From a virus (taxonomy: Duplodnaviria; Caudoviricetes): 63,719 nucleotides of DNA. The stretch is from positions 1 to 63,719 of IMG/VR virus record IMGVR_UViG_3300032240_001660; one strand, 5' to 3'. Position numbers and translations under genes: made by a program. Position 1 is the stretch's first letter. Every line of letters starts with the position of its first letter. Under the pieces are notes generated by a model. The model searched no databases, was not told where the DNA came from, and saw nothing but the letters and a program-made list of their open reading frames with translations. Shown here one piece after another: positions 9,817 to 61,529 of this stretch.

Positions 9817-11670
9817 TTATGGCAAGAAATACCCGCCGATTGCACCTAAGATAGGTCCACCAAAAGGTTGATTGGTTTTAATAACAACGATACCAGAACC
9901 GCCAGAACCGCCAGTACCACTCTGGCTATAAACAAGTTCACCTTGAGATGATCCGCCACCGCCACCGCCAGTTGATGCACCACCATTACCACCAATAAGC
10001 GAACCGGCCGTTCCAGAAAGGACATTTCCATTTCCACCAGTGTTCAATGCAGAACCGCCACCTGAACTATTGGGTGCAGATTGTGTTCCAGTTCTGTTAG
10101 CCGCAGTACCTCCGCCGCCGCCGCCAAGACCTCCGTTACCACCTCTGAGACTAGATGACCCGTCAGTCCATGTTGAACCGCCGCCACCGCCTGCAAAGTA
10201 GTATGGTGTTCCTAATATTGAAGAAACAGCACCAACACCACCATCACCTGAGGTACTGATATTAGCGGCAGTTCCTGCACCACCCGCACCTCCGCCACCT
10301 GATGAGATTCGAGAATCGTTAGATCCATTATATGTTGTAGAACCACCTGCAAATCCTTGACCTGGAGTTCCTGAACCACCGGCAAGAGGTGATCCATCTG
10401 ATGCATTACCACCACCAGAACCTCCAGAATCACCTTGTAAAACAGCAGGATAGATACCTGCTCGGCCTCCACCTGTTGCAGTTTGTCCATTGAACGAAGA
10501 ATTGCTTCCGCTTGAACCTCTATTTCCCGCTAAGTCTGTTACGCCTGCGCCACCGCCACCAACTGTAACAGTATATGATGAACCTGGTGTGACTGACATT
10601 GCACTACCCGCAAGTAATCCACCTGCACCTCCGCCACCACCGTGTCTGAAACCACCGCAACCGCCACCTGCAACTACAAGGTAATCAACTGATGTGACAC
10701 CATCGGGACATGTCCATGTAGCTGAACCTGTAAATTTGAAAATTTGATTGGCAGATGATTGTGGAGTCCATTTTACAATAATGATTCCTGAACCACCTGC
10801 ACCACCAACTGATGATGGAACTGAATTGCATTTACCACCGCCGCCGCCACCGCCAGTAGAGAAAGTACCTTTTGTTGCGGCCCTATTATCTACTGCACCT
10901 TCACCACCACCACCTGAACCACCAGCACCACCTAAAACTCCGGCAGGACCTTCATATCCACCACCGCCACCGCCCGCTAATGTTACTGGTGAACCCGTAA
11001 GTGATGTTGCGGTTCCGGTACCACCTCTTGATTTAGTTCCACTTGGATTTGCAGCGCCACAGTCTGCGCCGCCACCTTGACCCACTTCACTTGCACCACC
11101 TCCACCACCAGCAGAGGTACACGAAACTGGACCGGATGGAGCGCCTACACCGCCATTAGTTCCTTGACCTGGAGTTCCTGTTCCGCCTGACTGTGCAGGT
11201 GCATAAGAGTCTCGACCTGCACCGCCGCCTGAACCACCAGAAAGGCCACTTCTTTGGAAACCTCCGCCGCCACCGCCACCTGTTGATGTGATTGAAGGTC
11301 CTAGTGAACTGTTTCCACCATTAGAACCATCAGTACCCGCAGAAGCACCGCCTGCACCAATAGTCATTGTAATTGATGCACCTGGTGTTACTGAGAATGA
11401 TGTACCGGTTCTAAAACCGCCTGCACCGCCGCCGCCACCTCCGTTAGAAGCCGCATTTCCTCCGGTACTTGCACCACCGCCGCCACCACCTGCAACTACA
11501 ACATAATCGATTGTTGTTACACCTGTTGGAACTGTCCATGTTTCAGTTGCGGCAAAAGTTTGATACAAATTACCTGTTATTGGCGCAATAGATAAACCAT
11601 ACGGCCATTTGTAACCAGTAGGTCTTACTGTATTAACATTGAAATTATTATTTAAAAATTCTACTGACAT
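9817..11670 (-). CDS. Glycine-rich fibre tip/adhesin (two Gly-rich domains), copy 2
   Basis: Two WTxPxGVTxxDYxVVAGGGGG...GGSGIxxxK domains; C-terminus GGYFLP. Confidence 0.8.
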   Translation of the reverse strand: MSVEFLNNNFNVNTVRPTGYKWPYGLSIAPITGNLYQTFAATETWTVPTGVTTIDYVVVAGGGGGGASTGGNAASNGGGGGGAGGFRTGTSFSVTPGASITMTIGAGGASAGTDGSNGGNSSLGPSITSTGGGGGGGFQRSGLSGGSGGGAGRDSYAPAQSGGTGTPGQGTNGGVGAPSGPVSCTSAGGGGGASEVGQGGGADCGAANPSGTKSRGGTGTATSLTGSPVTLAGGGGGGYEGPAGVLGGAGGSGGGGEGAVDNRAATKGTFSTGGGGGGGKCNSVPSSVGGAGGSGIIIVKWTPQSSANQIFKFTGSATWTCPDGVTSVDYLVVAGGGCGGFRHGGGGGAGGLLAGSAMSVTPGSSYTVTVGGGGAGVTDLAGNRGSSGSNSSFNGQTATGGGRAGIYPAVLQGDSGGSGGGNASDGSPLAGGSGTPGQGFAGGSTTYNGSNDSRISSGGGGAGGAGTAANISTSGDGGVGAVSSILGTPYYFAGGGGGSTWTDGSSSLRGGNGGLGGGGGGTAANRTGTQSAPNSSGGGSALNTGGNGNVLSGTAGSLIGGNGGASTGGGGGGSSQGELVYSQSGTGGSGGSGIVVIKTNQPFGGPILGAIGGYFLP

Positions 11671-13549: not shown

Positions 13550-15316
13550 TTAATTAATGAAGTAACCGCCACGGGAACCTGCACTACCTGCACCAACATT
13601 TTGATTGGTTTTGATGACTACGATTCCAGAACCACCATCAGCACCTGATCCACCGGCACCACCACCGCCTCCTGCACCGCCGCCAGTGAAGGCAGTTCCT
13701 GATGTGCCGGCAGAATTATTTGGTCCACCGGCACCGCCACCACCCGAACCTCCAGATCCGGCAGTTTGGTAACCGCCTCCGCCACCCCCTGCATAAGTGA
13801 CTGGAGTACCAGATAATGGTGAAGCTAAACCTGAACCGCCGTTACCTGCACCTGGACCTGGATTAGCAGTTACACCTCCAGATCCTGCACCGCCGCCGCC
13901 GCCTGCACTATAAGAAGGACCTGAACCATTACCACCACTATTACCTTGACCTGGTGTTCCTGATCCACCTACACTATTTGCGGGTGCGGCTGAACCAACT
14001 TGACCTCCGCCACCCGAACCACCCGCTAATCCATTTCTTGGTGCAGCGGTACCTCCGCCGCCGCCTCCAATTGCAGTTAGAGAAGAAAATGAAGAATTTG
14101 CTCCATTAACACCATTTGTTCCTGGTGTCCATCCTCTTGAACCTCCGGCTCCAACTGTTACTGTATATGATGTTCCTGGTGTTACAGAAAAACTTGTTCC
14201 AGTTAACATACCGCCAGCACCTCCGCCGCCGCCTCCATCTGTACCAGATCCTCCACCACCCGCAACAATAAGATAATCGACTGATGTGACGCCTTCTGGA
14301 CATGTCCATCCACCAGTACCTTTAAATGTATATGTTAGATTCGCAGATGTTAATGGTACATATTTTACAATGATAACACCTGAACCACCCGAACCACCCC
14401 GACTGGTTTGAACTAATGGTCCTGATGGAGTTGATGAACTTGCACCGCCACCACCGCCTCCAAGACCTTGTGTACCATCAGTTCTTAAAATATCTACCCA
14501 TGCACCACCGTTACCACCACCGCCTGTGCCGCCAGTACCGCCTGTCGATGCAGGTGCATAACCGCCGCCACTTGACCTATCTACTCCACCGCCGCCACCG
14601 CCAGCATATGTTACTGGACTTCCTGTGATTGATGATGCAGAACCTGCACCGCCGGCACCTCCAACATAAGGCGCAGAATTAACTGAATTACCGCCAACAG
14701 CACCTGCGCCGCCGCCGCCACCACCTAAAGTAATATTTGCAGTACCGTCAAATCCTTGACCGCCATTGTTTCCTTGACCTGGTGTTCCCGAACCTCTATG
14801 GTTGACTGCACCGGCAACTTGGTCTCTTGAACCGCTACCGCCACCAGAACCTCCGTTTGCGCCAATAGATCCTGGTTCTCCTGCGGTTGGACCACCTGCG
14901 GGCCCGGCAGTACCACCACCGCCACCGCCTGTTGCAGTAATAGAAGGACCTAATGAAGAATCACTACCATTTGATCCTTTGGTATATTGACTAACAGAAG
15001 AACCGCCTGCACCAACAGTCATCGTAATTGATGCACCTGGTGTTACTGATAGTGATGTACCGGCATTATAACCACCTGCGCCACCGCCACCTCCTGTATA
15101 ACCGCCGCCGCCAGCACCGCCGCCAGCAATACAAAGATAGTCAACTGATGTAATGCCCGTTGGAACTGTCCACGATTGTGTTTCACCAAAATATACAACA
15201 ACATTACCTTGAATAGGTGCTAGAGTTAATCCTACTGGAAATTGATAACCAACAGGTCTTACGCTTTCACCGGTAAATGACCCGCCTATTAAACCTGTGC
15301 TTCTACGAATTGTCAT
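13550..15316 (-). CDS. Glycine-rich fibre tip/adhesin (two Gly-rich domains), copy 1
   Basis: Same architecture as 9817..11670: RPxGYxxPxGLxxAPIxGN N-terminus, WTVPTG/WTCP.G domains, GGYFIN C-terminus. Confidence 0.8.
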   Translation of the reverse strand: MTIRRSTGLIGGSFTGESVRPVGYQFPVGLTLAPIQGNVVVYFGETQSWTVPTGITSVDYLCIAGGGAGGGGYTGGGGGAGGYNAGTSLSVTPGASITMTVGAGGSSVSQYTKGSNGSDSSLGPSITATGGGGGGTAGPAGGPTAGEPGSIGANGGSGGGSGSRDQVAGAVNHRGSGTPGQGNNGGQGFDGTANITLGGGGGGAGAVGGNSVNSAPYVGGAGGAGSASSITGSPVTYAGGGGGGVDRSSGGGYAPASTGGTGGTGGGGNGGAWVDILRTDGTQGLGGGGGGASSSTPSGPLVQTSRGGSGGSGVIIVKYVPLTSANLTYTFKGTGGWTCPEGVTSVDYLIVAGGGGSGTDGGGGGGAGGMLTGTSFSVTPGTSYTVTVGAGGSRGWTPGTNGVNGANSSFSSLTAIGGGGGGTAAPRNGLAGGSGGGGQVGSAAPANSVGGSGTPGQGNSGGNGSGPSYSAGGGGGAGSGGVTANPGPGAGNGGSGLASPLSGTPVTYAGGGGGGYQTAGSGGSGGGGAGGPNNSAGTSGTAFTGGGAGGGGGAGGSGADGGSGIVVIKTNQNVGAGSAGSRGGYFIN

Positions 15317-50922: not shown

Positions 50923-51495
50923 TTACCACGCCCAACTAACGCAAGAATACCTTGTGCCTTTTGTTACTGGTTGAACTCCGTGTGGAAATAAAAATACGGA
51001 AGGAAATACAACTGCTGTGCCGGTTTTAAATTTGATTTCTTCGTCACCCCACATAATAAATTCACCACCCTCATAATCATCATTCAATACCGCAAGAAAG
51101 GTCATTGTAGGAATACCTTTTGCTTGACCATCAAACAATGAATGAATATGGTCGCAATGTAGTGCCATCAACCTATCTTCACTATAACGATTAAAACGAA
51201 CGGCAGAATAACCTTGCCATCCATTAAACCAAGGAAACTCTAATTCATTGGTATACTTTCGATATGCATCCCAAATTCTCTGCATCACATATGGTTGTGT
51301 AGATATATTACCACCCTCGAAAGAAACATCCAATTCACGATTGCCACTTTGAGTTCCATATGAACCATCAGAAGCATTATAGAATGTGTGTTGTTGCCAA
51401 TTTACATTGTTCATTTCACTTATGGTTTGTTTACACTTATCGGCATCTAACCAATTGTCATAAACTTTAACATAAGACATTAAATCTTTTTCCAT
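50923..51495 (-). CDS. 2OG-Fe(II) oxygenase, prolyl-4-hydroxylase-like
   Basis: HCD, LNDDYEGGEF, FPS.F.FPH.V.PVTKGTRYS.VSW. Confidence 0.88.
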   Translation of the reverse strand: MEKDLMSYVKVYDNWLDADKCKQTISEMNNVNWQQHTFYNASDGSYGTQSGNRELDVSFEGGNISTQPYVMQRIWDAYRKYTNELEFPWFNGWQGYSAVRFNRYSEDRLMALHCDHIHSLFDGQAKGIPTMTFLAVLNDDYEGGEFIMWGDEEIKFKTGTAVVFPSVFLFPHGVQPVTKGTRYSCVSWAW

Positions 51496-51497
51496 AA

Positions 51498-52223
51498 TCA
51501 ATCCCACAAACCTTGATAATATTTACCAAACAAACGGAATCCATTCTTCATTCTATCTTCAACAATTTGCATACCATCGTAATCGCATTTATATGTATGA
51601 TTTGGTCCATCTTTCATTTGCGTGAACTTGTGTTCACCTTTTGGTACTTCGTTGCCGTCTTTGTCAACAGGCACCCAAAGTATATCCATCTCACCAGAAC
51701 GATATGCATCTTGCCAAGAATCATCAACCTTGTGCTCAAATGCATATATCATTTCTTTGAGAACATAATCCCAACGCTTGAAATGGTTGTCATCGGTGTC
51801 CCATTCGTTTTCTTTTGGTGGTGCAGAAGTTGATTTTAATTCTTCTGGCACATCCTCATCATCAACAAAAGGCGCACCGTGTTTTGATTCTTTCAATTGT
51901 TTCAACATTGGAAGAATGATGTATGACAATGTGTGATCCATTGACCAAGTATCCCATCGGTCAATTTTTACATAATCAATCTTGCGGTCAACTTTACTCC
52001 AAACCCATTGAATTGCTTTACTGATAGGTAGAAGGCGGTCAGACCATTTCTCAACCCATTCGGGATGTTCGATGTATTTGTATTTACCTTCAAGTTCATC
52101 TAATGCGTTTTGGATACTACTATTGCGACTACATTTAGACCAATCTGTCCAAAAGAACATATAATCTAACATAGTGTAAGGACTAATCCAATGGTCTTTA
52201 TAATTATTAATGTAAACTTTCAC
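51498..52223 (-). CDS. Conserved hypothetical protein of T4-like phages
   Basis: KID.WDTWSMD.TL..II.PML.QLK..KHG.P, RWD.VL.EMI.AF, GF.LFGKYY..LWD. Confidence 0.75.
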   Translation of the reverse strand: MKVYINNYKDHWISPYTMLDYMFFWTDWSKCSRNSSIQNALDELEGKYKYIEHPEWVEKWSDRLLPISKAIQWVWSKVDRKIDYVKIDRWDTWSMDHTLSYIILPMLKQLKESKHGAPFVDDEDVPEELKSTSAPPKENEWDTDDNHFKRWDYVLKEMIYAFEHKVDDSWQDAYRSGEMDILWVPVDKDGNEVPKGEHKFTQMKDGPNHTYKCDYDGMQIVEDRMKNGFRLFGKYYQGLWD

Positions 52224-52372
52224 TCGACATTTTCCTTATATGATTTAAACTTATCGTAATTACGAATATCCGAAATTCTTTTTCGGCCTGCGGAATTACC
52301 CAACCATCTAAGCTGGGTACACATGGTACATCTGCAACTTCTACGAGGTTTCTTTCTTTTGAAATTTGCCAT
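52220..52372 (-). CDS. Small basic Cys-containing protein (50 aa), not in the ORF track
   Basis: MANFKRKKPRRSCRCTMCTQLRWLGNSAGRKRISDIRNYDKFKSYKENVE; AGGGG SD; GTGA overlap with the next gene. Confidence 0.7.
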   Translation of the reverse strand: MANFKRKKPRRSCRCTMCTQLRWLGNSAGRKRISDIRNYDKFKSYKENVE

Positions 52373-52390
52373 GATTTACCCCTAAATTTG

Positions 52391-52684
52391 TGGATGGTTA
52401 TTCTGTTACGAGGAAACCATCCGAAACCCTAAGCTGCGTTTAGGCTGCTAATGCGAACTGTGAGTCGTTTGCGTTTACTTTGATTTAGTTTTTACACCTG
52501 CTCTGGTGTGTTGTCCACTTCTATACTTGTTACCCTGTCGAAACTATGCAGGCCCATCAGAAGTATAATCCCGTTTCTTATGTCTCTATATGCTATGGGC
52601 ATATCGATTATACTTTTGGTGGACCTGGGGGGATTCGCACCCCCGTCCAGAATACTTTTCTAGTTGCTTCATACAACAATTCAA
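52391..52684 (-). ncRNA. ssrA: Circularly permuted two-piece tmRNA; tag ANDSQFALAA
   Basis: Acceptor piece GGGGG-TGCGAAT-CCCCC-CAGGTCC-ACCA ends at 52617; 61-nt spacer 52616-52556; coding piece starts GGGCCTG..GTTTCGAC at 52555 (G3.U70 Ala identity); tag ORF 52472-52440; 3' hairpin 52392-52422. Confidence 0.95.
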
Positions 52685-52690
52685 TAAACA

Positions 52691-52719
52691 ATTATATCAG
52701 AATTTATTTAGTGTGTCAA
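52691..52719 (-). promoter_or_regulatory. Consensus sigma70 promoter of the tmRNA with an embedded late motif
   Basis: TTGACA-cactaaataaattctga (17 nt)-TATAAT; TAAATA at 52705-10. Confidence 0.9.
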
Positions 52720-53382
52720 GTGGTATTTACCAATGTACCGATTTGTCATAGTAAGGTAATCTTGTTTTTTCTCAATGAAAATTTGAGGTAAAGTCTCACC
52801 TTCAACGGCAATTGCAATAACCAATTGTTCAATTGGCATGCCTGTTCTTTCTTCAAACATTTCGGAATAGGCAGTTGCTTGCATGAAGTAATTTTCAATG
52901 TGATTTTTATCTTTCAATCGAGAGGATGTTTTCCAATCAATAATGGATAAAACACCATCCCAAATACCAATGCAATCACAACGACCTGCAATCTTCAATC
53001 TATCTGAGAATAGTGGTTGTTCAATACCATAAATGTCACCAATATGAGTATCCAAATAAGGTCTGATATTGACAAACATTTCTTTAATGTCTGGCATCAT
53101 CGTTTGCATTTGAAGTGGTGACATTTCATTTAACAAATACTTCTCAACTGAATTATGCAACTTGGTACCACGACCAGATGCTTTACGAGAGATTTTATTT
53201 GCTTCTTCTTCACCAACTCTTTGGCGCCACTCCATAATCGCCTTCTTATTGTAAGAGGACAATACAGTAGTGATAGAAGGATAGAATTTGCCTTCAGGTG
53301 TTTTATATTTTCTACCAGATTCGGTAGTTTCGGATTCTAAATCAAAATTTAATGATTCAAGTTTAACATGATTAAAAGGCAT
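52708..53382 (-). CDS. PD-(D/E)XK exonuclease (RecB/Cas4-like superfamily)
   Basis: YPSITTVL, W..RVG.EEA, RGT..H, E..L.S...AGR.DC, IIDWKTS, YF.Q..AY. Confidence 0.88.
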   Translation of the reverse strand: MPFNHVKLESLNFDLESETTESGRKYKTPEGKFYPSITTVLSSYNKKAIMEWRQRVGEEEANKISRKASGRGTKLHNSVEKYLLNEMSPLQMQTMMPDIKEMFVNIRPYLDTHIGDIYGIEQPLFSDRLKIAGRCDCIGIWDGVLSIIDWKTSSRLKDKNHIENYFMQATAYSEMFEERTGMPIEQLVIAIAVEGETLPQIFIEKKQDYLTMTNRYIGKYHLTH

Positions 53383-53705
53383 TATTTGGTCATTCGTTTT
53401 GTAATTCTGTCCACATGTTTTTTAACCACTTGAGCGCTTCTTGCCTCTTTAATGGATTTGCGGTGATATTTTTCTCCAACTGGACTAGAAGGATGTTTTT
53501 CGGCTACTTTCTGTAACACTTCTTTGAAACCACCGAGTTTTCTGTCACTTTCACGAGCAGAATTAACACCAGACACAATCGCTGGTGCAGTCAATACGGA
53601 TTGAATATGAGGATTTTCTTTTAAGAATTCTTCACGCTCGGAGATTTTCATAAACGATTCGAATTCTTCACCTGTTTCAGTATCTAAAAAATTATATGTT
53701 GGCAT
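53382..53705 (-). CDS. FmdB-like regulatory protein lacking the zinc-ribbon cysteines
   Basis: MPTY.F....TGE.FE..M.ISE...FL..NP; GFKEVL.K....HP. Confidence 0.65.
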   Translation of the reverse strand: MPTYNFLDTETGEEFESFMKISEREEFLKENPHIQSVLTAPAIVSGVNSARESDRKLGGFKEVLQKVAEKHPSSPVGEKYHRKSIKEARSAQVVKKHVDRITKRMTK

Positions 53706-56083: not shown

Positions 56084-56112
56084 ATTGTAACATAGAACGG
56101 AACAATTGTCAA
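56084..56112 (-). promoter_or_regulatory. Early sigma70 promoter
   Basis: TTGACA-N17-TACAAT with an extended -10 TG. Confidence 0.85.
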
Positions 56113-57941: not shown

Positions 57942-57970
57942 ATTATATCAGCAAAGTGCCGAATTGTCAA
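57942..57970 (-). promoter_or_regulatory. Early sigma70 promoter (consensus)
   Basis: TTGACA-N17-TATAAT. Confidence 0.9.
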
Positions 57971-59196: not shown

Positions 59197-59225
59197 ATTA
59201 TATTAGCAATCTGCCTAATTGTCAA
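59197..59225 (-). promoter_or_regulatory. Early sigma70 promoter (consensus)
   Basis: TTGACA-N17-TATAAT. Confidence 0.9.
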
Positions 59226-60598: not shown

Positions 60599-61529
60599 CT
60601 TTGTTTTGCCAATTGTAAGCTGTTTGTATAATAGAGATTATATCATGCTTAGGTCGGTATTTCAATATGTCTGAGGCAAAAGAGATATCGGCAAACAGAT
60701 AAGGAGGGTCTCCTGCCCGTCTAGGTTCATACCGATAAGTTACTTTCTCGCCAGTAATCTTTTCAACAAGGTTAACAATTTCTTGTACCGAGTATCCTTT
60801 GCCTGTTCCTAAATTAATAGTCTGCGGTGAATTGTGTTTTGCAAGGTATTCGCCGGCTAATAAATGTGCTTCGGCAACATCACTTACATGAACATAGTCT
60901 CTGACACAAGTACCATCGGGTGTGTCATAGTCATTTCCATAAATTGTGAAGTTATTTAGATTTTGCAGAATTCGAGGAATTAGATGTGTCTCTGGTTGAT
61001 GACATTCACCCATTTCGTTTTCAGGATCCGCACCTGCAAGGTTAAAGTAACGGAAAATAATATAGTTCAAACCCGATTGTTTGATTGCCAGTTCCGCACA
61101 ATACTTACTACCTGCATATGGGTTATTGAAAGGATTTAACTTATCGTTTTCTTTAATCGCATCGGTCTTTGTTTCATAGACACCTGCGGTTGAAGAATAA
61201 ATGATATTGTTCACACCCCAATACTTCATAACATCAAGTAATGTGTTTGTGCCAGACGAATTGTTATGATAAAATGTGGTTGGAAATTTTACTGATTCAC
61301 CAACTTCAATTCTTCCCGCAAGGTGAAAAACTGTATCGATATTTACTTTATCAAAAAGGTGATTTAGTGATTCTTTATCAGTTACATTACAAGGATAAAA
61401 AAGGTCGAGATATTCATTATTGGTATGTTCGATATCCAGACCAACAACTTTCCATCCTGCCTGTTTAAGTGTTTTGGCCAAGTGTGAGCCAAGGTAGCCT
61501 GAAGCACCTGTTATCAATGCAGTTTTCAT
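60588..61529 (-). CDS. galE: UDP-glucose 4-epimerase (start revised)
   Basis: ITGASGYLGSH, HLAG...VGES, YSSTA, YAGSK, RYFN.AGA, THLIP, DGTCVRDY.HV.D.A.AH, RRAGDP. Confidence 0.9.
   Translation of the reverse strand: MKTALITGASGYLGSHLAKTLKQAGWKVVGLDIEHTNNEYLDLFYPCNVTDKESLNHLFDKVNIDTVFHLAGRIEVGESVKFPTTFYHNNSSGTNTLLDVMKYWGVNNIIYSSTAGVYETKTDAIKENDKLNPFNNPYAGSKYCAELAIKQSGLNYIIFRYFNLAGADPENEMGECHQPETHLIPRILQNLNNFTIYGNDYDTPDGTCVRDYVHVSDVAEAHLLAGEYLAKHNSPQTINLGTGKGYSVQEIVNLVEKITGEKVTYRYEPRRAGDPPYLFADISFASDILKYRPKHDIISIIQTAYNWQNKDGN

Follow-up and report, generated by a model that had tools for sequence, protein, structure and literature searches.

The DNA analysed here (the window, 63,719 nucleotides) comes from IMG/VR, where it is a linear virus record (IMGVR_UViG_3300032240_001660; Duplodnaviria, Caudoviricetes) with a CheckV completeness estimate of 39%. 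At 52391-52719, on its minus strand, it carries a gene for a circularly permuted (two-piece) transfer-messenger RNA (tmRNA; gene ssrA). An earlier note, made from the letters of this DNA, had described such a phage-encoded gene, and its features were confirmed base for base. The two detectors proposed there as checks both responded. For the whole window ARAGORN made a single call, which is a permuted 'tmRNA*' on the minus strand (52349-52709) with the tag ANDSQFALAA. Among the Rfam models, beta_tmRNA (RF01850) was matched over model positions 1-331 with 121 bits (cut-off 84, E 2.7e-36) and tmRNA_permuted (RF04321) with 117.5 bits (cut-off 47, E 2.8e-22); alpha_tmRNA and cyano_tmRNA gave 53.4 and 40.4 bits, so that the beta model is the best fit. 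The agreement of ARAGORN and Rfam is far beyond chance, and apart from these two tmRNA models no Rfam family reached its own cut-off in the window. The parts of the gene, all on the minus strand, are as follows.

52691-52719, minus: sigma-70 promoter, consisting of TTGACA (52719-52714), a 17-nt spacer and the extended -10 element TGaTATAAT (52699-52691)
52617-52684, minus: acceptor piece of about 68 nt, from the Rfam alignment, ARAGORN and RNAalifold on 16 members, with its 5' end placed from the promoter
52678-52648, minus: 5' strands of helix 2, within the acceptor piece
52654-52648 with 52537-52531, minus: inter-piece helix (helix 2a), UAUUCUG with CAGGGUA
52644-52640, 52639-52633 and 52632-52628, minus: T-arm, GGGGG, loop UGCGAAU and CCCCC (5-bp stem, 7-nt loop)
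52627-52621, minus: acceptor 3' strand CAGGUCC, followed by A73 (52620) and the encoded CCA, which ends at 52617
52556-52616, minus: spacer of 61 nt between the CCA end and G1, presumed to be excised
52615-52606 with 52570-52561, minus: spacer stem, a perfect 10 bp that extends the acceptor stem
just before G1, minus: CUGAU leader, within the spacer
52391-52555, minus: coding piece of about 165 nt, with a predicted 3' end
52555-52549, minus: acceptor 5' strand GGGCCUG, G1 being 52555
52548-52538, minus: D-loop analogue CAUAGUUUCGA, in the coding piece
52509-52494, minus: hairpin ACACC/GGUGU, in the coding piece
52440-52472, minus: tag frame GCA AAC GAC TCA CAG TTC GCA TTA GCA GCC TAA, translated by ARAGORN as ANDSQFALAA and stop
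52422-52392, minus: 3' hairpin, in the coding piece

The 3' tRNA half (T-arm, acceptor strand and CCA) is encoded 61 nt upstream of the 5' half, which is the permuted order. The two acceptor strands, GGGCCUG and CAGGUCC, pair at 7/7 positions including G3.U70, and ACCA follows; these are the alanine identity elements that the earlier note had named. The D-loop analogue, AGUUUCGAC, fits the alignment of the Rfam beta model; this reduced analogue and the T-arm would together make up the elbow to which SmpB binds. The promoter of that note was also borne out, with 12/12 consensus positions plus the TG of an extended -10 element; it is the sole 12/12 site within 51400-53500, and transcription would start near 52684.

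Structure, tag and T-loop across the viral family

Relatives were gathered from viral contigs with a degenerate pattern for the T-arm and the acceptor end, which gave at least 120 stretches; the pattern fixes the T-arm sequence and the set is biased accordingly. On the 120 listed stretches ARAGORN called a permuted tmRNA in 84 and only a standard one in 2, and made no call in 34, many of which run into a contig end or contain a long spacer. Nine of ten loci tested were of the beta type (100.5-143.3 bits), and the tenth passed the general permuted model only. The acceptor 5' strand was located downstream in 94 of the 120 loci.

The helices of the gene are conserved by pairing while their letters change. 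Acceptor positions 4 and 5 are complementary to 69 and 68 in 94/94 viral relatives (among the matches listed), with six dinucleotide types. Pairing of helix 2a holds in 95 of 105 cells, with 15 sequence combinations and compensatory changes at three pairs; when the partner strand was slid by one or two bases, pairing fell to 33-55%. For the stem that closes the spacer, the mean duplex energy was -11.1, compared with -4.7 (sd 2.2) for shuffles (n=77), and many compensatory changes occur in it across the family (alignment columns 74-87 with 160-173). The leader before G1 takes the form YUGAU across the family. RNAalifold, applied to the window and 15 relatives, recovered helix 2a, the T-arm, the acceptor-plus-spacer stem, the stop-codon helix and the 3' hairpin, with both-sided (compensatory) changes in 25 of 49 pairs. 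Among 99 unique relatives (among the matches listed), 37 have a promoter with at least 10/12 consensus positions ahead of the gene, compared with 2/99 shuffles, and its distance from the gene is mostly constant.

The tag reading of the earlier note, with which ARAGORN agrees, is further backed by a constraint of the coding type across the family. Among 32 unique 10-residue tag sequences, the numbers of variable columns at the three codon positions are 4, 4 and 10, and the residues A1, N2, D3, A9 and A10 are invariant while their codons vary. Judged from these comparisons, selection acts on the gene at two levels, RNA structure and encoded message, and this speaks against its being a pseudogene or only a decoy.

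The T-loop, UGCGAAU, had been regarded as non-canonical, and it is; the deviation was refined to a single position, G in place of U at position 55 (52638), and it is not specific to phages. In the 120 listed stretches, with the window's own three copies excluded, position 55 is G in 98 and U in 22. The same G55 T-arm was found at 83 places in 185,579 species genomes; its carriers include one-piece tmRNAs of Patescibacteria, alpha-type permuted genes of Rhodobacter, Sulfitobacter and Ruegeria, and two contigs of Bacteroidota metagenome-assembled genomes (MAGs), in which phage-type genes lie beside tRNA clusters. According to Burks et al. 2005, the two-piece tmRNA of Caulobacter likewise has G where E. 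coli has U342 (PMC1168896).

The base at position 55 changes in step with a purine in the D-loop analogue (52545 in the window), five bases before a conserved YGA. Among unique tRNA-like domains (loci L002-L121, L124-L203 and L254-L279), U55 occurs with 'GG' in 37/37 and G55 with 'AG' in 73/81, and most of the exceptions to the latter resemble a one-base register shift. This pattern spans the phage beta-type genes, the alpha-type genes of pelagimyophages and Rhodobacterales, and the one-piece tmRNAs of Patescibacteria. It points to G55 as a compensated tertiary contact, an analogue of tRNA G18-U55, and so as a structural variant and no defect; no statement of such a pair was found in the excerpts of PMC1168896 or PMC3968760. 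The presence of G55 in chromosomal tmRNAs and the Caulobacter report suggest that it is compatible with function. The proposal of the earlier note that the altered T-loop evades nucleases is not supported, given its occurrence in chromosomal tmRNAs of Rhodobacterales and Patescibacteria and in Caulobacter and its covariation with the D-loop analogue.

Two further observations concern the 3' hairpin and the spacer. The loop of the 3' hairpin, CCUCGUAACAGAAUA (52414-52400), is nearly invariant in the family and contains CAGAAUA, the perfect complement of the helix 2a 5' strand (52654-52648). With G-U pairs tolerated, this complementarity is found in 58/79 relatives compared with 27/79 shuffles, but covariation is nearly nil, and the pairing is not claimed; the loop could take part in an alternative pairing or could simply be a conserved loop. 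Many relatives have long spacers between CCA and G1 (284 nt in L016 and L042, 342 in L040, 171 in L027 and L055, 183 in L046 and L053, 175 in L037). At the start of the long spacers, the 5' strand of the spacer stem provides a ribosome-binding site of the AAGGA type, and ATG or GTG follows about 11 nt after CCA (also in L014/L029 and L023/L059). Pairs of contigs encode similar spacer peptides with substitutions, namely a cysteine-rich protein of 86-87 residues and hydrophobic peptides of 32-41 residues, and some relatives may thus have small genes nested within the presumably excised spacer. The 61-nt spacer of the window has no nested small gene.

Proposed function and competing explanations

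The gene is probably a functional, circularly permuted ssrA gene of a lytic T4-like phage of freshwater. The steps below are modelled on established tmRNA biology (review PMC3968760). Unmodified host RNA polymerase would transcribe a single precursor early in infection; host RNase P would cut at G1 (52555), and host 3' processing would trim to the encoded CCA (52617), releasing the 61-nt spacer. The two pieces, of about 68 and 165 nt, would be held together through the acceptor stem and helix 2. The RNA would then be charged by the host alanyl-tRNA synthetase (AlaRS) and carried by SmpB and EF-Tu of the host to ribosomes that have stalled on broken mRNAs, where translation would resume at GCA and add ANDSQFALAA, directing the product to host proteases of the ClpXP type. 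The gain for the phage would lie in the recycling of ribosomes and amino acids while host transcription, including that of host ssrA, is shut down and mRNA is cut.

The reliance on host factors is suggested by a search for SmpB (PF01668). The window and four larger virus records with a tmRNA, two of which are at least 90% complete, gave no match, and the same search matched in 10/10 bacterial genomes used as a control; because these phage records yielded no SmpB gene, host factors are presumably used. Contigs from RNA libraries, at least 85% alike and lying mostly on the tmRNA, were found in four freshwater-labelled runs from three studies, although this is weak evidence, since contigs cannot prove transcription. 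Both pieces have such contigs on them, and the ends of a few fall at 52613-52617; contigs show neither RNA ends nor strand, and the uncovered parts of the stretch carry no meaning.

Several points weigh against a functional gene of this kind. Cleavage in two, alanylation, SmpB binding and tagging are predictions from established tmRNA biology. The benefit to the phage is argued by analogy, from the biology of T4 and from published speculation (PMC9004378, PMC7162821), and compatibility with the SmpB and AlaRS of the host is assumed. One RNA-library contig of 135 nt corresponds to 52549-52646 with zero differences and spans the entire spacer, and therefore represents either an unprocessed form or contaminating DNA in that library. 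The last hairpin of the Rfam beta model has no match in the window gene. Finally, no intrinsic terminator was found after the gene on the minus strand; the 3' end is hence undefined, and read-through into the following frames is likely, as is also proposed for the Methylophilales phage Melnitz.

A working tmRNA might also be put to another use, marking host proteins for amino-acid recycling or sensing stalled ribosomes to time lysis. Both ideas appear as hypotheses in Buchholz et al. 2022 (PMC9004378) and Al-Shayeb et al. 2020 (PMC7162821), and the tag end ALAA is protease-directing. However, the sequence holds nothing that separates such a use from plain rescue, and where Melnitz has a riboswitch beside its tmRNA, the window has no other RNA family at cut-off; we consider this repurposing unlikely. 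Less likely still is a decoy or inhibitor, an RNA that mainly titrates the SmpB or AlaRS of the host, or acts as a competitor of its tmRNA, and so shuts down host trans-translation with no productive tagging. The DS6A-like tRNA-like domain does inhibit tmRNA (Hudson et al. 2014, PMC4131195; PMC11915505), no phage SmpB was found, and the strong early promoter would permit a high dosage. A pure decoy, however, needs neither the complete tag frame, with its peptide-level constraint (4, 4, 10; invariant AND...AA), nor the conserved resume context, stop-codon helix and helix 2.

Affinities with bacterial and phage tmRNAs

The earlier note had implied that a permuted tmRNA in a phage is new. Phage two-piece tmRNA genes are, however, already documented, and the window is a new example of them and not a new kind. 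Buchholz et al. 2022 describe the two-piece ssrA of Melnitz and report 133 unique tmRNAs in 402 of 18,146 phage genomes, of which 53 are two-piece forms, 50 of these 53 being from marine or aquatic phages (PMC9004378). The 2025 tmRNA database holds 97,179 sequences, 79 of them from phages (PMC11915505), and tmRNAs and SmpB have been found in huge phages (Al-Shayeb et al. 2020, PMC7162821). ARAGORN and Rfam, which are standard tools, already annotate such genes. What the window adds to the phages with their own ribosome-rescue RNA is a well-documented case and, behind it, a family whose uncultured members number well over a hundred. Of some interest are how large and coherent this clade of uncultured phages is, that it lies outside the bacterial beta clade, and that position 55 covaries with the D-loop analogue; the wider question is why lytic aquatic phages retain a tagging-competent tmRNA without SmpB.

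The proteins of the window include gp32, the helicase loader gp59, proteins of the baseplate wedge and the tail, a cell-wall hydrolase and a 2OG-Fe(II) oxygenase. Judged by gp6, a baseplate protein, the closest cultured phages are Pelagibacter phage HTVC008M (43%), Melnitz (41%) and cyanomyophages, all classed as Kyanoviridae. A permuted tmRNA above the Rfam cut-off was present in 4/4 relatives checked, namely Melnitz, HTVC008M and Mosig (alpha type) and S-CAM3 (cyanobacterial type). Melnitz and the pelagimyophages HTVC008M and Mosig are, like the phage of the window, T4-like aquatic myophages of or near Kyanoviridae with a permuted tmRNA behind a sigma-70-type early promoter; SmpB is likewise absent from the phage records searched, and their T-loops are also non-canonical (UGCAACU and UGCAAUA, with G55, in Mosig and HTVC008M, and GGCAGUA in Melnitz). 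They differ in type, since they match best as alpha type (67.6-106.7 bits), whereas the window has 121 bits with the beta model and 53.4 with the alpha model. The riboswitch of Melnitz, a glutamine riboswitch, lies directly 3' of its tmRNA (L211 1886-1934, Rfam 52.8 bits), in contrast to the window; neither the window nor any of the 17 loci scanned with Rfam alongside Melnitz yielded a riboswitch above the cut-off.

A blastn search with 461 nt at E 1e-5 gave 0 matches in deposited phages, and a looser search (E up to 1) gave partial matches in 35 deposited phage records. No permuted tmRNA was found in Phage C48C1, which is closest among deposited phages when judged by the nuclease gene beside the tmRNA (48% identity). 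The beta type itself is found in the Synechococcus elongatus phage BUCT-ZZ01 (94.5 bits) and the Stenotrophomonas phage Marzo (Menderavirus; 94.6 bits), and the Xanthomonas phage BUDD matches the general permuted model only (77.5 bits). In all of these phages, unlike the window, the T-loop is of the canonical U55 kind and the tag is longer (ANDETFSMALAA, VAANDDSYTVRIAA, VAANDADYSVARYA); their hosts are a cyanobacterium and Xanthomonadales, with no betaproteobacterium among them. The tmRNA is annotated in the Marzo record but not in those of BUCT-ZZ01 (L283 1290-1690) and BUDD (L282 1472-1923). In the deposited BUDD record, a coding sequence for a 'hypothetical protein' overlies the permuted tmRNA, and in BUCT-ZZ01 ARAGORN finds a tRNA with a CUA anticodon at L283 180-255.

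The beta-type two-piece lineage was reportedly first described by Sharkady and Williams in 2004. The bacterial beta type (RF01850) shares with the window the gene order, the helix 2 segments, the D-loop analogue, the hairpin after helix 2, the UAAA-GCA-AAC-GA resume context, a tag of the ANDxxFALAA type and the conserved 3' hairpin loop. It differs in that the 25 sampled bacterial beta genes have U55 and a 'GG' D-loop analogue, compared with G55 and 'AG' in the window, in its scores (160-311 bits compared with 121) and in the last model hairpin, which is missing in the window. The beta_tmRNA model exceeded its cut-off in 0/151 sampled genomes of Pseudomonadota, and a beta-like T-arm pattern was present in only 1 of 401 sampled genomes. 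Around that one genome, which became the centre of sampling, beta-type genes (160-311 bits) were found in 4/151 genomes of its order, 22/61 of its family and 4/61 of a second family. All of the 25 bacterial beta-type genes resolved by ARAGORN (25/25) have U55. A bacterial beta family of low G+C (0.36-0.45), with the tags ANDENFALAA and ANDESYALAA, resembles the window only loosely.

We reconstructed a maximum-likelihood tree from 124 rows and 206 columns, with an alpha-type outgroup and with four long-branch viral rows left out. The alignment is short and consists of two joined pieces, the backbone is moderately supported, and the bacterial beta genes come from two families. The 25 bacterial beta-type genes fall on one side of a branch with 78/81 (81% of bootstrap trees). 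The window lies within a separate phage clade of 74 rows (98/80), composed of 71 viral contigs, BUCT-ZZ01 at the base and one Bacteroidota MAG contig; its closest relatives, L020, L087 and L096, are up to 95% identical over 202 columns. The phage clade and the bacterial beta genes join at 92/87 against the alpha-type outgroup. Descent from within the betaproteobacterial clade, as the name beta implies, was thus not found, the window lying outside the sampled bacterial beta clade.

The suggestion in the earlier note that the resume context gives a betaproteobacterial clue to the host is not supported, given this position and the beta-scoring forms in phages of Stenotrophomonas and Synechococcus elongatus. 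The beta label is a matter of resemblance and says nothing about the host, and on a phage tmRNA the Rfam label is not to be taken as a host prediction; a mismatch between tmRNA type and host has already been shown for Melnitz (PMC9004378). From the alpha to the beta type, the path in the tree, which is rooted on bacterial alpha-type genes, leads through the pelagimyophages, a Melnitz group and the large clade of the window, with the bacterial beta clade appearing as sister to a phage clade. If this order is true, the betaproteobacterial 'third lineage' could have arrived by way of a phage, with no separate permutation event. It is conceivable, although we think it improbable, that aquatic T4-like phages have passed on the permuted tmRNA vertically since an early date rather than acquired it by serial recent captures from hosts.

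The other origin proposed in the earlier note, a permutation event in phages with no link to the permuted lineages of bacteria (alpha, beta and cyanobacterial), is very unlikely. The 74-row clade (98/80) does consist solely of phage or phage-like contigs, and the scores of phage genes with the beta model (94-152 bits) are well under the bacterial ones (160-311). Nevertheless, the helices of the beta model are matched from end to end: the alignment covers 1-331, including helix 2, the hairpin after it, the resume context and the conserved 3' hairpin loop. The phage clade joins the bacterial beta type (92/87) against the alpha outgroup, and the break point is identical to that of every known permuted form. 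The least probable explanation of all is a passenger or remnant (a recently captured host ssrA, an integration leftover, mis-assembled bacterial DNA or a decaying pseudogene), for although tmRNA genes are common integration sites with fragments in prophages (PMC9004378 and PMC4131195) and some T-arm-pattern matches in viral contigs are 3' ends only, both halves are present here and perfectly paired, the G+C of the tmRNA match (0.40) is near the value around it (0.37), 55 of 122 independent contigs (among the matches listed) share the gene order, covariation and tag constraint indicate purifying selection, and the clade of the window lies outside the sampled bacterial beta clade.

Two better-known groups of tmRNAs serve for comparison. 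The function of the two-piece tmRNA of Caulobacter is said to have been shown by Keiler et al. in 2000. That of Caulobacter crescentus is like the predicted RNA of the window in that one precursor gives two base-paired RNAs, and it is reported to have the same G change in the T-loop (PMC1168896); by its description it is set apart as an alpha-type chromosomal gene with another tag and another pseudoknot content. Mycobacteriophages of the Bxz1 group, Bacillus phage G and DS6A share with the window a phage-borne ssrA (PMC4131195). The tmRNAs of the Bxz1 group and phage G are one-piece, DS6A has only a tRNA-like domain, the order is not permuted, and the hosts and phage groups are unrelated to those of the window (PMC4131195). 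These genes show that the ssrA function has been carried by phages repeatedly.

Beta-type permuted tmRNAs of the phage clade also occur in two Bacteroidota MAG contigs, L127 (Crocinitomicaceae) and L135 (Haliscomenobacter). L135 has tRNA genes nearby, and its MAG has a standard tmRNA of its own elsewhere (134 bits are reported for one of the two MAGs). Both contigs are probably phage DNA binned with a bacterium.

Neighbouring genes and the probable early region

The genes on either side of the tmRNA are as follows.

52708-53382, minus: PD-(D/E)XK nuclease-like gene (Pfam PF12705, 23.4 bits), the upstream neighbour and not part of the tmRNA
52220-52372, minus: frame of 50 codons with an AGGGG Shine-Dalgarno-like site, downstream of the tmRNA

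The 3' end of the nuclease-like gene overlaps the tmRNA promoter. Homologues of this gene are present in 55 of 122 related loci (among the matches listed), two genes further upstream recur as well, and where coordinates were compared (L024) the nuclease homologue lies immediately upstream of the tmRNA. The synteny kept in these 55 loci suggests vertical inheritance of the phage tmRNA. The downstream frame is probably co-transcribed with the tmRNA, but its status as a gene is doubtful: it has no Pfam match, and tblastn found it in 0/122 related loci (among the matches listed).

Besides that of the tmRNA (52691-52719), perfect TTGACA-N17-TATAAT sites are found in the window at 57942-57970 and 59197-59225, and sites with one mismatch at 56084-56112 and 60637-60665, all on the minus strand. 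These five consensus-type promoters compare with 1.3 expected, and five were reached in 2 of 100 shuffles. They sit among small frames, several have TG before the -10 element, and the cluster, at 52.7 kb and beyond, is probably the early region of the phage.

Elsewhere in the window, on the minus strand, there is a paralogous pair of genes of about 600 codons each (9817-11670 and 13550-15316; phrog_2295 and a part resembling tail-fibre assembly). Their stretch has a G+C of 0.445, compared with about 0.36, and a strongly negative GC skew, and the pair may be a duplicated or acquired tail-fibre module.

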